Virus record (IMG/VR): IMGVR_UViG_2563366803_000003 | Reading direction: 5' to 3' (one strand) | Origin: a virus | Taxonomy: Duplodnaviria > Heunggongvirae > Uroviricota > Caudoviricetes | DNA: 17,828 nucleotides | Shown: positions 1 through 17,828 of the stretch, one piece after another | How the letters are laid out: each line of letters starts with the position of its first letter | Position numbering within the stretch: the stretch's first letter is position 1 | The notes under the pieces: generated by a model | What the model was told of the DNA's origin: nothing | Databases searched by the model: none | The model's input: only the letters and a program-made list of their open reading frames with translations | Translations under genes and position numbers: made by a program

Positions 1-504
1 TTATTGATAGTGTTTTATGTTCAGATAATGCCCGATGACTTTGTCATGCAGCTCCACCGATTTTGAAAACGACAGCGACTTCCGTCCCAGCCGTGCCAGG
101 TGCTGCCTCAGATTCAGGTTATGCCGCTCAATTCGCTGCGTATATCGCTTGCTGATTACGTGCAGCTTTCCCTTCAGGCGGGATTCATACAGCGGCCAGC
201 CATCCGTCATCCATATCACCACGTCAAAGGGTGACAGCAGGCTCATAAGACGCCCCAGCGTCGCCATAGTGCGTTCACCGAATACGTGCGCAACAACCGT
301 CTTCCGGAGCCTGTCATACGCGTAAAACAGCCAGCGCTGGCGCGATTTAGCCCCGACATAGCCCCACTGTTCGTCCATTTCCGCGCAGACGATGACGTCA
401 CTGCCCGGCTGTATGTGCGAGGTTACCGACTGCGGCCTGAGTTTTTTAAGTGACGTAAAATCGTGTTGAGGCCAACGCCCATAATGCGGGCTGTTGCCCG
501 GCAT
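1..504 (-). CDS. insB: IS1 InsB (167 aa) transposase catalytic part, expressed as InsAB' by -1 frameshift
   Basis: Translation [25 protein letters not shown]... matches IS1 InsB as recalled. Confidence 0.95.
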
Positions 505-698
505 CCAACGCCATTCATGGCCATATCAATGATTTTCTGGTGCGTACCGGGTTGAGAAGCGGTGTAAGTGAACTGCAGTTGCCATGTTTTACGGCAGTGA
601 GAGCAGAGATAGCGCTGATGTCCGGCGGTGCTTTTGCCGTTACGCACCACCCCGTCAGTAGCTGAACAGGAGGGACAGCTGATAGAAACAGAAGCCAC
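423..698 (-). CDS. insA: IS1 InsA (91 aa, Cys4 zinc-finger/HTH transposition regulator)
   Basis: Translation [22 protein letters not shown]... matches IS1 InsA as recalled; A6C slippery site (gttttttaa on + strand near 442-450) precedes insB. Confidence 0.95.
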
Positions 699-753
699 TG
701 GAGCACCTCAAAAACACCATCATACACTAAATCAGTAAGTTGGCAGCATCACC

Positions 754-8516: not shown

Positions 8517-9209
8517 CTACCCATGCTTTCTATATGTCTGCGGCATGCTCCCGATGACTTTCCCGAAGATGAACACGCGGTTCATCTCGTCTTTCTCGAT
8601 CGGGTCCCACGGTGAGTAGCTCTTGTTATCAGAGATAACCAGCAGCTTATCCTTCATCATTTGCAGGCGCTTTACATGGGCGGTGTCGTCATACAGAAAC
8701 GCATAGATACCATCACCGTCGAAAGATTTAACAGTGATATCAACGAACAGAAGATCACCTGGTTCGATCGTTCCTGACATGCTGTCACCGCGTACGTTAA
8801 TGATGCGGATATTTTCTGCCTTCCTGCCATCGAACATGTGACGAGCATCGTCAAACGAGTACTCAACCGAGCGTAGAACTTCTACAAACTCACGGTTGAT
8901 GACTCCCGGCCCGGCACTCACTTCTATATCAAGAACGTCAATCTTGAAGTATTTGGGATGGTTGGCAGTAGGCTTCCCTAATTGTTGACCGTCATTTCTC
9001 ATCGGGCCTATGCCTGATGAGAGCCACTCTGTTCGAACACCCAATGCATTAGCTATTTCAACAATTTTTGTTGAGCCGCGCGCGTTGCCGCTTGTCAGTC
9101 TCCAGATTGTGGGTTGAGCTACCCCAGACGCCTTTGCAAGAGCGCCTTGAGACATTCCAGATTGTTCCATCGCTAGGTTTAAGCGATCAGCAAGAGTTTC
9201 TTTTTTCAT
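8517..9209 (-). CDS. cI: cI-type prophage repressor (N-terminal XRE HTH + C-terminal S24/LexA-like autopeptidase), about 230 aa, leaderless
   Basis: HTH segment LADRLNLAMEQSGMSQGALAKASGVAQPTIWRL; S24 peptidase signature around GDSMSGTIEPGDLLFVD with downstream Lys (HVKRL); ATG at 9209 lies 7 nt after a -10 hexamer. Confidence 0.85.
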   Translation of the reverse strand: MKKETLADRLNLAMEQSGMSQGALAKASGVAQPTIWRLTSGNARGSTKIVEIANALGVRTEWLSSGIGPMRNDGQQLGKPTANHPKYFKIDVLDIEVSAGPGVINREFVEVLRSVEYSFDDARHMFDGRKAENIRIINVRGDSMSGTIEPGDLLFVDITVKSFDGDGIYAFLYDDTAHVKRLQMMKDKLLVISDNKSYSPWDPIEKDEMNRVFIFGKVIGSMPQTYRKHG

Positions 9210-9319
9210 AAGTTTTAATTTATACGCTTGCGTATTGATGGTCAAAACACGTTTTGCTATTGTTATGATTAATACGCATTGCTATTATTTATTCATTGCA
9301 ATACCAATAGGAATTGATA
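9210..9319. promoter_or_regulatory. Divergent immunity control region. Predicted pRM on minus strand (-35 TTGACC at + 9240-9245, -10 TAAATT at 9217-9222, leaderless cI) and pR on plus strand (-35 TTGTTA 9260-9265, -10 TATTAT 9283-9288); operator-like repeats TTGCTATT and palindromes
   Basis: Hexamers and 17-bp spacings read directly; motif shared with 6540-6580. Confidence 0.5.
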
Positions 9320-12197: not shown

Positions 12198-12530
12198 ATG
12201 AACCCTTATATTTATCTTGGTGGTGCAATACTTGCAGAGGTCATTGGTACAACCTTAATGAAGTTTTCAGAAGGTTTTACACGGTTATGGCCATCTGTTG
12301 GTACAATTATTTGTTATTGTGCATCATTCTGGTTATTAGCTCAGACGCTGGCTTATATTCCTACAGGGATTGCTTATGCTATCTGGTCAGGAGTCGGTAT
12401 TGTCCTGATTAGTTTACTGTCATGGGGATTTTTCGGCCAACGGCTGGACCTGCCAGCCATTATAGGCATGATGTTGATTTGTGCCGGTGTGTTGGTTATT
12501 AATTTATTGTCACGAAGCACACCACATTAA
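12198..12530 (+). CDS. emrE: EmrE small multidrug-resistance efflux transporter, 110 aa (prophage moron)
   Basis: Translation MNPYIYLGGAILAEVIGTTLMKFSEGFTRLWPSVGTIICYCASFWLLAQTLAYIPTGIAYAIWSGVGIVLISLLSWGFFGQRLDLPAIIGMMLICAGVL... matches EmrE; AGGAAAG SD. Confidence 0.95.
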   Translation: MNPYIYLGGAILAEVIGTTLMKFSEGFTRLWPSVGTIICYCASFWLLAQTLAYIPTGIAYAIWSGVGIVLISLLSWGFFGQRLDLPAIIGMMLICAGVLVINLLSRSTPH

Positions 12531-13624: not shown

Positions 13625-13639
13625 GGTAATGACTCCAAC

Positions 13640-14143
13640 TTATTGATAGTGTTTTATGTTCAGATAATGCCCGATGACTTTGTCATGCAGCTCCACCGAT
13701 TTTGAAAACGACAGCGACTTCCGTCCCAGCCGTGCCAGGTGCTGCCTCAGATTCAGGTTATGCCGCTCAATTCGCTGCGTATATCGCTTGCTGATTACGT
13801 GCAGCTTTCCCTTCAGGCGGGATTCATACAGCGGCCAGCCATCCGTCATCCATATCACCACGTCAAAGGGTGACAGCAGGCTCATAAGACGCCCCAGCGT
13901 CGCCATAGTGCGTTCACCGAATACGTGCGCAACAACCGTCTTCCGGAGACTGTCATACGCGTAAAACAGCCAGCGCTGGCGCGATTTAGCCCCGACATAG
14001 CCCCACTGTTCGTCCATTTCCGCGCAGACGATGACGTCACTGCCCGGCTGTATGCGCGAGGTTACCGACTGCGGCCTGAGTTTTTTAAGTGACGTAAAAT
14101 CGTGTTGAGGCCAACGCCCATAATGCGGGCTGTTGCCCGGCAT
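13640..14143 (-). CDS. insB: IS1 InsB (the longer 194-aa ORF in the track is the out-of-frame upstream extension used for InsAB' frameshifting)
   Basis: Same frame and sequence as copy A InsB, with one amino-acid difference (H vs R). Confidence 0.93.
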
Positions 14144-14337
14144 CCAACGCCATTCATGGCCATATCTATGATTTTCTGGTGCGTACCGGGTTGAGAAGCG
14201 GTGTAAGTGAACTGCAGTTGCCATGTTTTACGGCAGTGAGAGCAGAGATAGCGCTGATGTCCGGCGGTGCTTTTGCCGTTACGCACCACCCCGTCAGTAG
14301 CTGAACAGGAGGGACAGCTGATAGAAACAGAAGCCAC
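14062..14337 (-). CDS. insA: IS1 InsA
   Basis: Identical protein to copy A InsA. Confidence 0.95.
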
Positions 14338-14392
14338 TGGAGCACCTCAAAAACACCATCATACACTAAATCAGTAAGTTGGCAGCATCACC

Positions 14393-14512
14393 CTCACTAA
14401 AGCAGGTTTCTGGCTGGATGATGCTCAGGTCGTTGATTACCGCGTTGTGAAGATGCCTGTTACCAAAGGTGGGAGGCTGGAACTGACCATCACCGAAATG
14501 GGGAATGAATGA
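14393..14512 (+). pseudogene. rusA: 3' fragment (last 39 codons) of rusA Holliday-junction resolvase, fused directly to the IS1 terminus
   Basis: Translation [39 protein letters not shown] equals the RusA C-terminus as recalled; no start codon or N-terminal part. Confidence 0.8.
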
Positions 14513-14734: not shown

Positions 14735-15118
14735 ATGCGTGATATTCAGATGGTTCTTGAGCGTTGGGGAGCGTGGGCGGCTAATAATCATGAAGATGTG
14801 ACCTGGTCGTCCATTGCCGCCGGTTTTAAGGGATTAATTCCTTCAAAAGTAAAATCTCGCCCGCAATGTTGTGACGATGACGCGATGATCATTTGCGGGT
14901 GCATGGCCCGTCTGAAAAAGAACAACAGCGATTTGCACGATTTATTAGTAGATTATTATGTAGTCGGTATGACATTCATGTCACTGGCAGGTAAGCATTG
15001 CTGCTCTGATGGTTATATCGGGAAAAGGTTACAAAAGGCTGAGGGCATAATTGAAGGGATGTTAATGGCATTAGATATCCGGTTAGAGATGGATATCGTT
15101 GTTAATAACTCTAATTAA
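14735..15118 (+). CDS. quuD: Late-gene antiterminator Q (QuuD-like), 127 aa
   Basis: Translation [24 protein letters not shown]...[16 protein letters not shown]... with Cys-rich zinc-binding motif; GGAG SD 7 nt upstream. Confidence 0.85.
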
Positions 15119-15143
15119 TACGCCAATTATTTACTAAAAGTTA

Positions 15144-15298
15144 TTAAAAATGGGGCGTTGAAACGCCCCCAAAAATAAAGGGTAATATATAACAGAAGGT
15201 TTGTATAGTTAGAAGCAAGGTTGTGCTTCTAAAGGAAGTGGCTTGAGGGAGCCACTTATATGTTGGGGAGGCAAAGCCTCCCACAACATATCTTTTAG
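15144..15298. promoter_or_regulatory. Q-downstream region with three hairpins (15151-15170, 15238-15256, 15257-15290). Likely contains pR'/qut and a tR'-like terminator on + strand (15257-15298) and a convergent terminator for the porin gene on minus strand (15144-15170)
   Basis: Stem-loops read directly; the 15151-15170 hairpin is followed by a T-run on the minus strand, the 15257-15290 hairpin by CTTTT on the plus strand. Confidence 0.4.
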
Positions 15299-15306
15299 TA
15301 ATCAAA

Positions 15307-16389
15307 TTAGAACTGGTAAACCATACCTACAGCAACGATATCATCGGTAGCAACGCCAGATGCTTTCGTGAAATCGCTCTTATCAATCAGGTTGATTTTG
15401 TAGTCAACAAAAGTGGACATATTTTTGTTGAAGTAATAGGTTGCACCTACATCAACATATTCAACCAGGTCCTGATCACCCCAAACACCCAAGTCTTTTC
15501 CTTTAGAATGCAGGTAAGCAACGGATGGACGCAGGCCGAAGTCGAACTGATATTGTGCAACAGCTTCGAAGTTTTGTGCTTTGTTGGCAATATGGTTATT
15601 ACCAAAAACAGTCATGTTCTGGGTTTCAGAATAGGTGGTGGCCAGATAGATGTTGTTCGCATCATATTTCAGACCAGCTGCCCATACTTCAGCATTTTGA
15701 CCAGAAGCATTCAGACCGTTGTTACCGTAGATAACCTGATTATTAGTGCGATCAGATTTAGCATAGGTTGCACCTACACCGAATCCTTCATACTCATAAG
15801 TAGTGGAGAAACCGAAACCATCACCATTAGCTTCAGTTACGTCAGTGCGGTCATTTTTACCCTGATACTGAGCAGCAAAGTTCAGACCATCAACCAGACC
15901 AAAGAAGTCGTTGTTACGATAAGTTGCAACACCAGTGGTGCGACCAGTCATGAACACATCTGTTTGAGTCCAAGTGTCACCACCGAATTCTGGCAGGACG
16001 TCAGTCCACGCACCGATGTCGTATGCTACACCGTAGTTACGGCCGTAATCGATGGAGCCGTAGTCACCGAATTTCAGGCCAGCGAAGGCAAGACGGGTTT
16101 TATCTTTGGAGGAACCTTGAGATTCAGCGCGGTTGCCTTTGAATTCATATTCCCACTGACCGAAACCAGTCAGTTGATCGTTGATTTGGGTTTCACCTTT
16201 GAAGCCAAGACGGGCATAAGTAGTATCACCATCATCTGCATCATTAGAGGAGAAGTAGTGCTTAGCATTAACTTTCCCGTACAGATCCAGCTTGTTACTG
16301 TCTTTATTATAAATTTCAGCTGCCTGAGCAGACATCGCCATCAGTACTGATGCAGCTACAGCAGAAATTGCCACTGTTAATTTTTTCAT
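15307..16389 (-). CDS. nmpC: Outer-membrane general porin of the NmpC/OmpD/OmpC family, intact (360 aa with signal peptide)
   Basis: Signal peptide [23 protein letters not shown], beta-barrel porin sequence ending ...VGMVYQF; opposite orientation to the phage late genes (moron). Confidence 0.9.
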
Positions 16390-16978
16390 CGTGAGCCCTT
16401 TTTTTTGAACTATTATTAAAAAATGATGTCACTGCGCGATAAATATTCATCTAATCAATGTGATTATTTCAAGATGTAAGTTTTAGTTTCTCATTTAATT
16501 TGTGAAGTAGATCTCTATTTTTATCTGAACTTTTTCTATCGAAACCTATTTATGGCTCTTATTTGAACAAAAATAAACCTATTAGCTAATTTATATTAAT
16601 GGCTGTTATTTATGGGGGGGTCTATAATTCGATGGTTTAATTTAAATTAACTAAAAATAACGCCGGAAATTATTTATTGGTTATTTGTTGAGGTTTTCTT
16701 ATGTATTTGTGGTGGTGTTTTGAACACTCGGTAGCATTCTCATAAATATCATTCAGTGGTTTACGTACGTAAAAAATTGGTTATGCTGTTAAGAGTGGTT
16801 ACTTCGTCACACAGCTTAAACCCGCCGTCGAGCTGGTTTTTCCATTTTTTGAGTCTCGATATTAGCTGATAACTCAATACCTGAGTTATTCACTGACTCC
16901 GAGTCTGTTACGTTTCTGCTTTTTTGCGATACGTTGTATTCCCTCAATTTACACCCGCTTTGTCTGCGAGGTGGGGTT

Positions 16979-17194
16979 ATGAAATCCATGGATAAGTTAA
17001 CAACGGGTGTCGCCTATGGCACCTCAGCAGGTAGTGCCGGTTACTGGTTTTTACAGCTGCTCGATAAAGTCACGCCCTCACAGTGGGCAGCAATAGGTGT
17101 GCTGGGTAGCCTGGTATTTGGCCTGCTGACGTACCTGACAAACCTTTATTTCAAGATTAAAGAAGATAAGCGCAAGGCTGCGAGAGGTGAATAA
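16979..17194 (+). CDS. essD: Class II holin / pinholin of the S21 family (71 aa) with dual-start motif MKSMDK
   Basis: Translation [71 protein letters not shown]; two TM segments; stop overlaps endolysin start (TAATG). Confidence 0.85.
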
Positions 17195-17599
17195 TGCCTC
17201 CATCATTACGAAAAGCCGTTGCTGCTGCTATTGGTGGCGGAGCAATTGCTATAGCATCAGTGTTAATCACTGGCCCAAGTGGTAACGATGGTCTGGAAGG
17301 TGTCAGCTACATACCATACAAAGATATTGTTGGTGTATGGACCGTATGTCACGGGCATACAGGAAAAGACATCATGCTCGGTAAAACGTATACCAAAGCA
17401 GAATGCAAAGCACTCTTGAATAAAGACCTTGCCACTGTCGCCAGACAAATTAACCCATACATCGAAGTCGATATACCGGAAACAACGCGCGGCGCTCTTT
17501 ACTCATTCGTTTACAACGTGGGTGCTGGCAATTTCAGAACATCGACGCTTCTTCGCAAAATAAACCAGGGCGATATCAAAGGCGCATGTGATCAGTTAC
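17194..17599 (+). pseudogene. rrrD: SAR-endolysin (RrrD/R21-like lysozyme) truncated near codon 135 by IS2 insertion
   Basis: N-terminal signal-anchor-release segment [20 protein letters not shown]; lysozyme core; frame continues into the IS2 terminus giving a chimeric tail [16 protein letters not shown]. Confidence 0.8.
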
Positions 17600-17828
17600 T
17601 AGACTGGCCCCCTGAATCTCCAGACAACCAATATCACTTATTTAAGTGATAGTCTTAATACTAGTTTTTAGACTAGTCATTGGAGAACAGATGATTGATG
17701 TCTTAGGGCCGGAGAAACGCAGACGGCGTACCACACAGGAAAAGATCGCAATTGTTCAGCAGAGCTTTGAACCGGGGATGACGGTCTCCCTCGTTGCCCG
17801 GCAACATGGTGTAGCAGCCAGCCAGTTA
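17600..17828 (+). mobile_element. IS2 (IS3 family), terminal part only; continues beyond window
   Basis: Terminus tagactggccccctgaatctccagacaaccaatatcacttaa and downstream orfA (insC) start match IS2 as recalled. Confidence 0.85.
17691..17828 (+). CDS. insC: IS2 OrfA (InsC) transposase N-terminal part, partial at window end
   Basis: Translation [46 protein letters not shown]. Confidence 0.85.

Follow-up and report, generated by a model that had tools for sequence, protein, structure and literature searches.

An intact NmpC/Lc-type porin gene in a reverse-oriented cassette of a defective DLP12-type prophage of Escherichia coli

Phage-borne porins of the NmpC/Lc group are already known and widespread, and work on the gene family goes back to the 1970s and 1980s. 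The closest described systems are the lc gene of phage PA-2 (GenBank J02580; Blasband, Marcotte and Schnaitman 1986), which lies between the antiterminator gene Q and the lysis genes, and nmpC of the DLP12 prophage of E. coli K-12, which is found at argU next to intD, is flanked by quuD and essD, and is annotated in NC_000913.3 (b0553) as two fragments split by the insertion sequence (IS) IS5B, 58 nt before the stop codon, with a flanking CTAA duplication. Salmonella enterica has a related porin, OmpD, as a major chromosomal porin, and the P1-like phage P7 carries an nmpC of its own (AF503408). Here we describe a porin gene in IMG/VR record IMGVR_UViG_2563366803_000003, a 17,828-nt stretch of caudoviral DNA to which we refer as the window. 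The gene occupies 15307-16389 of the minus strand, with an ATG start, a TAA stop and a product of 360 residues, and every defining feature of the phage-borne NmpC/Lc porins that a sequence can reveal was found in it; on these features it is a member of the group. The explanation that we hold to be highly probable is that an intact lc/nmpC allele sits in a self-contained, reverse-oriented cassette that would be expressed in the lysogen and would lead, assisted by the small RNA (sRNA) IpeX, to a swap of porins.

The porin and its described relatives

The predicted protein matches the Pfam profile PF00267 (Porin_1) over the full length of the profile (positions 1-337 of 337) at 507.3 bits against a cutoff of 23.7 (E 3e-152), which is far above chance. 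From residue 24 onward it aligns to the mature N-termini of the solved OmpC, PhoE, OmpK36 and OmpF (E 1e-136 to 1e-107), and the mature chain begins AEIYNK, fitting the family pattern AE(I/V)YNK. In the alignment to OmpC (2xe2) the constriction residues K39, R60, R99, D130, E134 and R150 correspond to OmpC K16, R37, R74, D105, E109 and R124, where the OmpC numbers are a manual count along the aligned 2xe2 chain, and the PEFGG motif of loop 3 (L3) is present as P133-E134-F135-G136-G137. Across 25 aligned homologues the residues that line the pore are invariant or nearly so, and the chain ends in ...VGMVYQF, of which Y358, Q359 and F360 are invariant in the same set. A C-terminal aromatic Phe is the signal recognized by Bam.

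The protein shares 91% of its residues with K-12 NmpC from which IS5 has been removed, about 91% with PA-2 Lc and 61% with K-12 OmpC. With Salmonella OmpD the figure is 80% along the entire chain, and the conserved residues of the pore are common to both. Phage PhiR70_1, whose record is a complete genome with E. coli C as host, encodes a porin that is 100% identical, and the exact protein is recorded on at least 1000 contigs. On sequence, then, it is a general diffusion porin of the OmpC/OmpF/PhoE type, and its closest chromosomal relative is Salmonella OmpD. A first-pass annotation, made from the letters of the window without database searches, had described a complete NmpC/OmpD-like porin with a signal peptide, and the open reading frame (ORF), the Porin_1 match and the signal of 23 residues bear this out; the alignment to Salmonella ompD that it had proposed gives 80% protein identity over the full length, and for that reason the label "NmpC/OmpD-like" is accurate.

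The gene is complete where its K-12 counterpart is not. The same annotation had stated, correctly as NC_000913.3 confirms, that K-12 nmpC is inactivated by IS5; the insertion splits the gene after codon 346, whereas the window copy is uninterrupted. The alignment to K-12 nmpC, likewise proposed there, revealed no frameshift, no truncation and no premature stop in the window porin, which supports the reading given there that the prophage may supply a functional porin of the outer membrane. With IS5 taken out of K-12 NmpC, the two proteins agree at 331 of 365 residues and are set apart by two in-frame indels that together amount to 5 residues. Where IS5 entered in K-12 (window 15362-15367), the window reads ACG AAA and K-12 reads ACT AAA, a synonymous difference, and because of this ACT to ACG change the IS5 target CTAA is absent from the window allele, which has CGAA instead.

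PA-2 lc occupies the same slot, from Q to the lysis genes, in the same orientation. Its DNA is 92% identical to that of the window along 2.2 kb, a stretch that takes in the upstream region and the 3' untranslated region (UTR), and it has the same signal peptide and an identical proximal CRP site. Its product has 365 residues compared with 360 in the window, and the two genes differ by 29 nonsynonymous codons and 5 gap codons (two in-frame indels) of 365. Codon differences between the window and K-12 number 62 synonymous and 29 nonsynonymous; between the window and PhiR70_1 there are 11 synonymous and 0 nonsynonymous. These comparisons indicate purifying selection on the porin coding sequence (CDS), and the count of 0 against 11 relative to PhiR70_1 argues that the protein is used.

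Porins of this group fall into two length classes, a 360-residue class that forms a 90% cluster of 2741 sequences and a 365-residue class made up of clusters of 896 and 535 sequences; the K-12 and PA-2 porins belong to the 365-residue class by length and identity. The alleles of the two classes are mosaic, since codons 1-120 are near-identical between them and the remainder has diverged both synonymously and nonsynonymously. Nonsynonymous changes and indels between the classes are densest in alignment codons 181-240, which cover two places where the solved OmpC and OmpK37 carry insertions or deletions. From general knowledge of OmpC-type porins, we take this indel-rich stretch to be external loops.

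A cassette between Q and a putative late promoter

The porin and its flanks make up a cassette (15119-16758) that begins directly after Q (Table 1). To its right lies a block in which TTTACG (-35, 16760-16765) is followed after 16 nt by TATGCT (-10, 16782-16787), then by the conserved TAAGAGTGGTTAC and by a GC-rich hairpin with a T run, an order that we infer to be the late promoter pR' with its Q-loading region and then the terminator tR'. The segment 16759-16841 is the sole intergenic sequence common to the window, phage PhiR40_1 and the Stx1a phage LC645425. In LC645425 the block stands within a few bases of the end of Q and is followed by stx1A; in PhiR40_1 it follows a minus-strand ORF of 148 residues (phrog_3152) in the slot of the porin, which suggests that the slot is a recurrent site for reverse-oriented cargo. 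This PhiR40_1 ORF (985-1431 of the stretch read) gave no match in Pfam or PADLOC. The arrangement of the window, with a porin on the opposite strand between Q and the holin, is repeated in more than 30 complete phage genomes, and the claim of the first-pass annotation that the porin is antisense to Q, holin and endolysin stands on the gene calls and Pfam matches.

Because the cassette sits between Q and the putative pR', it would lie outside the late transcript, from which it diverges, a layout that agrees better with expression during lysogeny than with expression upon induction. The stx genes of Stx phages offer a useful comparison. Like the porin they are cargo in the lambdoid interval from Q to the lysis genes, and in LC645425 the same late block is found together with a related Q; stx, however, is downstream of that block on the late strand and by position would be co-transcribed with the late genes, whereas the porin is upstream of it, is read from the opposite strand and is served by a promoter of its own. 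Late transcription running antisense through the porin was rejected as the main picture, because the putative pR'/tR' block is found beyond the cassette, towards the holin. Early transcripts heading rightward through Q could nevertheless extend antisense into the porin, and a terminator scan saw no strong plus-strand terminator in 15119-15306. In the hairpin of the putative tR' (16820-16849) the 5-bp stem (CCCGC...GCTGG) is interrupted by a C:U mismatch, as it is in PA-2 and in strain SW070917; the stem in K-12 DLP12 is perfect (GCGGG). Such a mismatch could make basal transcription of the lysis genes leakier.

The first-pass annotation had given the porin its own AT-rich upstream region at 16390-16930. 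A region of its own it does have, with a GC content of 23-33% across 16400-16800, but the AT-rich part extends only over about 16390-16750; the rest of the claimed interval is made up of the conserved, putative late-promoter/terminator block at 16759-16849 and of the holin leader at 16850-16978. The proximal 115 nt or so upstream of the porin equal those of K-12 but for a single additional A, in the A-tract that precedes the ribosome-binding site. In K-12 the promoter PnmpC is a sigma-70 promoter mapped by rapid amplification of cDNA 5' ends (5' RACE), with a G as the start; CRP activates it, OmpR, IHF and MprA repress it, and it is strong enough to drive the sole detectable IS5 transposase mRNA (PMC11677980). 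By homology, porin transcription in the window probably starts at a G near 16435-16437, and a TTGAAA hexamer at 16467-16472 resembles a -35 element. The proximal CRP-like site would be centred at about -71 from the G near 16437, which is the usual class I distance, and phage P7 has a perfect consensus, TGTGATTTTGATCACA, at the aligned position. A second, distal CRP site annotated in PA-2 corresponds to 16795-16815, some 410-430 nt upstream of the porin start codon, where it overlaps the early transcribed segment of the putative pR'.

Downstream of the stop codon, about 160 nt contain four hairpins, of which the last is an intrinsic terminator (stem 15152-15169 and a T run). The predicted folding energy of this 3' UTR is -58.5 kcal/mol (z -7.7), none of 200 shuffled sequences folds as well, and the sequence is 98% identical to the K-12 quuD-nmpC spacer. 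IpeX has been described as a 167-nt sRNA of DLP12 and PA-2 that is a product of the phage porin transcript (PMC12197685) and that represses ompC and ompF (PMC5069750, PMC7177473, PMC12197685). Because its length and position fit these review descriptions, we equate the 3' UTR of the window porin with a putative IpeX. Rfam at gathering thresholds returned tRNA-Arg as the only match in the window, and the IpeX family was not found.

The comparison with P7 bears on the whole unit. Its cassette (640-2320 of the stretch read) has about 75% DNA identity to that of the window and the same design, with a TTGAAA -35 element, a CRP site in the corresponding place, the porin gene and then a 3' UTR of four hairpins (z -6.7), yet it adjoins ssb and not Q/pR'; the unit of promoter, porin and 3' UTR is thus shared between unrelated phage types. 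In an RNAalifold comparison of the window and P7 3' UTRs, 11 of 56 predicted pairs are kept through changes on both sides, and by inspection one stem has changed from ATGTTG/CAACAT in the window to ATGCGGG/CCCGCAT in P7, another from GGCT/AGCC to GGCA/TGCC and a third from AGAAGCA/TGCTTCT to AGAGGCAA/TTGCCTCT. Since P7 is a single diverged lineage, the support that it lends to a conserved 3' UTR structure is suggestive, not statistical. The ompD gene of Salmonella, by comparison, has a non-phage chromosomal context, with an EamA-family gene on one side and GFA and MFS genes on the other, and an unrelated upstream region; the 3' UTR of the cassette is absent there, and the 3' UTR of ompD itself is short and unrelated.

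Table 1. Coordinates of the porin cassette and of neighbouring features in the window
Feature	Position	Strand	Basis or remark
IS1 copy	13626-14393		sequence reads; DDE_Tnp_IS1 gene; intact gene orders for comparison
Antiterminator Q (quuD)	14735-15118	+	Pfam Phage_antitermQ, E 1e-53; RefSeq quuD in near-identical loci; left neighbour of the cassette
Structured 3' UTR, read as the IpeX sRNA region	15145-15306	-	folding, terminator scan, K-12 identity
Porin CDS, 360 codons and stop	15307-16389	-	ORF list and sequence; 360-residue allele class of the nmpC/lc porin
Signal peptide, 23 codons, cleavage after AQA	16321-16389	-	N-terminus equal to the PA-2 lc sig_peptide feature
5' UTR and putative core promoter PnmpC	16390-16480	-	K-12 homology; TTGAAA -35-like hexamer
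AT-rich regulatory spacer	16390-16758		between porin start codon and late-promoter block; 97% conserved with K-12 and SW070917
Proximal CRP-like site	16498-16518	-	identical to the CRP site annotated in PA-2 record J02580
Late-promoter block, putative pR' and tR'	16759-16849	+	conserved among phages of this Q family; right boundary of the cassette
P21-type holin (essD)	16979-17194	+	Pfam Phage_holin_2_1, E 2e-35
Lysozyme gene rrrD, cut by presumed IS2	17194-17599	+	Pfam Phage_lysozyme, profile positions 3-107 of 125

Expression of the porin and alternative explanations

That the gene is intact and of the porin family, how its cassette is built and bounded, how well it is conserved and how widespread it is are all read from the sequences themselves; our account of expression, pore function, IpeX action and exclusion draws on the literature and on homology. 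Its place between Q and the putative pR' would let the lysogen transcribe the cassette whether or not Q is made or the phage induced. Sec would export the porin precursor, and Bam would insert it as a 16-strand barrel, assembled in trimers and open to small hydrophilic solutes; the 3' UTR would be processed to IpeX, lowering the synthesis of OmpC and OmpF. The lysogen would in this way partly swap its own porins for the phage porin, and the swap would alter permeability and remove or alter receptors for phages and colicins, which is to say that it would bring about lysogenic conversion and exclusion. Reports on intact nmpC in other strains are consistent with such expression. In strain CFT073 both mRNA and protein were detected, at higher levels at 37 C (PMC12890032), and a passage of the same paper cites strain AW1.7 as expressing an intact nmpC; in Shigella flexneri M90T nmpC is expressed anaerobically, in part dependent on FNR (PMC4229854). 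The nmpC mRNA is also a target of RybB (PMC3333887).

Several points weigh against this account. The consensus sigma-70 scan did not call PnmpC upstream of the porin; the PnmpC and pR' assignments rest on homology and comparative position, and the scan called neither. The proximal CRP-like site has 2 mismatches to TGTGA-N6-TCACA, which taken alone is no better than chance. AlphaFold2, run on the porin with a shallow alignment of 25 sequences, returned a model with a predicted local distance difference test (pLDDT) value of 35.8, which is unusable, the homologues supplied being too alike to help (73-98% identity). For that reason the 16-strand trimeric barrel is deduced from homology to solved porins, namely from phmmer E-values of about 1e-130 over the full mature length and from the 61% identity to K-12 OmpC. 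The location of IpeX on 15145-15306 is an inference from sequence that leans on reviews. The role in exclusion goes back to the PA-2 literature of the 1970s, and a literature search on PA-2 and the OmpC receptor gave nothing relevant.

The main alternative is that the porin is intact but effectively silent in this strain, for example through silencing by H-NS or through a need for special conditions, with no porin made in ordinary growth. This alternative bears on expression alone and leaves the identity of the gene as an NmpC/Lc porin untouched. Very AT-rich DNA such as the porin upstream region is of the kind that H-NS silences, and the GC content of 23-33% upstream of the gene favours the alternative, as does the consensus promoter scan in which no promoter was called. 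In E. coli B, nmpC is reportedly a "quiescent" porin gene, a word from the title of a 1998 paper by Prilipov that is cited in PMC3333887. Expression in other strains has also been found to depend on conditions (PMC12890032, PMC4229854). Against silence stand the observations that the same promoter in K-12 drives the only detectable IS5 transposase mRNA (PMC11677980), that NmpC protein was detected in CFT073 (PMC12890032), and that the differences from the PhiR70_1 gene are 0 nonsynonymous and 11 synonymous. On balance we think it unlikely that the gene is silent and favour expression in the lysogen.

The gene could also be a cryptic pseudogene that keeps its full length and yet has lost its function through missense changes or through the IS damage nearby; the prophage around it is in decay, as IS1 at 13626-14393 and a presumed IS2 from 17600 testify. 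Neither IS touches the cassette at 15119-16758, however, and the region 15100-17000 is 100% identical to that of strain SW070917, which has no IS in that neighbourhood; the protein, moreover, equals the PhiR70_1 porin and has all the conserved porin residues. This makes a disabled gene very improbable. That the gene is simply the host ompC, as the RefSeq label of the best matches ("ompC: porin OmpC") and the NCBIfam model NF007841 ("porin OmpC", 514.7 against a cutoff of 484) would have it, can practically be dismissed, since NF007841 is a subfamily model and not an equivalog, the identity is 61% to K-12 OmpC compared with 91% to NmpC, and the gene lies between a prophage Q and the holin, not at the ompC-micF locus. 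OmpC orthology was ruled out on the identity and the locus; the NCBIfam equivalogs for PhoE (505.7 against 599) and OmpF (479.7 against 583) score the porin below their cutoffs.

The surrounding prophage and the spread of the cassette

The window is 100% identical (10,635 of 10,635 nt compared) to scaffold KE137162.1 of E. coli assembly GCA_000408585.1, and is a lambdoid prophage of the DLP12 type at the tRNA-Arg(UCU) gene argU, adjoining an intD-type integrase gene. Unlike K-12 DLP12, it retains a lambda-like early region, with an S24 repressor and the replication genes O and P, to which synteny with strain SW070917 adds exo, bet and gam; outside the window, genes for terminase, portal and capsid are kept as well. 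Two insertions have crippled this prophage. The IS1 copy links the 3' end of rusA with a truncated ybcK, whose ORF of 306 residues continues into the IS, and the associated deletion removed ybcL, ybcM, ylcH, ybcN, ninE and ybcO, all of which are present in K-12 and SW070917; because of this deletion at 13626-14393 the prophage as a whole is defective. The second insertion calls for a correction to the first-pass annotation, because the endolysin gene rrrD is not intact. Homology to other genomes stops at 17599, an rrrD-IS fusion ORF of 151 residues continues to 17649, and from 17600 there is a transposase-like ORF (PF01527, HTH_Tnp_1). We take the element, which reaches the end of the window at 17828, to be IS2 from its end sequence. 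The identical rrrD/IS2 junction occurs in a contig from a Hadza gut metagenome (3354 nt, 100% identical), which argues that this decayed prophage lineage circulates in human guts.

Other features of the prophage were noted in passing. Between 6739 and 8387 on the minus strand, beside the S24/HTH repressor gene at 8517-9245, are genes for a DUF4411 protein (170 residues) and for an ImmA/IrrE-type M78 peptidase (379 residues); the peptidase has weak PADLOC matches to capP and RmrA, and the two genes may together form a module of the immunity region with a role in regulation or a link to defence. The SMR multidrug efflux gene emrE is carried as cargo at 12198-12530. A partial IS1 copy occupies the left edge of the window (1-752), and homology to other E. 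coli argU-intD regions resumes at 753.

Of 5426 complete E. coli genomes, 3934 match the region 15100-17000, and in 2465 of these at least 80% of the region is contiguous; the K-12 nmpC::IS5 junction was found in 285 of the same 5426. The intact porin cassette is thus common in E. coli, and the broken nmpC::IS5 of K-12 is the exception. Among phage records, 42 carry the porin, PA-2 lc included. The record of phage 434 (OL657227.1) has a porin with IS5 after codon 346, as in K-12 nmpC, which is consistent with the acquisition of the K-12 DLP12 late region by this laboratory phage through recombination. RefSeq labels the phage porin "ompC" in nearly all genomes among the matches listed, and the label can mislead porin inventories and analyses of porin loss in resistance studies.

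A broader proposal, which we regard as quite unlikely, would make the cassette a portable "porin-swap" unit, consisting of a CRP-dependent promoter, a porin and an sRNA that silences host porins, which moves among lambdoid and P1-like phages, with the Q-pR' interval as its slot, the 360-residue allele as a receptor-escape variant and a link between the distal CRP site and pR'. Under that proposal the 360-residue allele, whose differences from the K-12 and PA-2 type fall mainly in the presumed external loops, may be kept by diversifying selection from phages and colicins, and the overlap of the distal CRP site at 16795-16815 with the early transcribed part of the putative pR' could, speculatively, link catabolite state to late transcription.

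What the present analysis adds to the first-pass annotation is refinement and not new biology, namely a 3' UTR that would encode IpeX, the placement of the cassette upstream of the putative pR' and the finding that the prophage is defective. Along with the porin, the cassette probably brings in IpeX, an sRNA directed at porins of the host itself. Intact phage porins change the entry of antibiotics and nutrients, and they change the docking of phages, colicins and contact-dependent toxins as well as what the host immune system sees.

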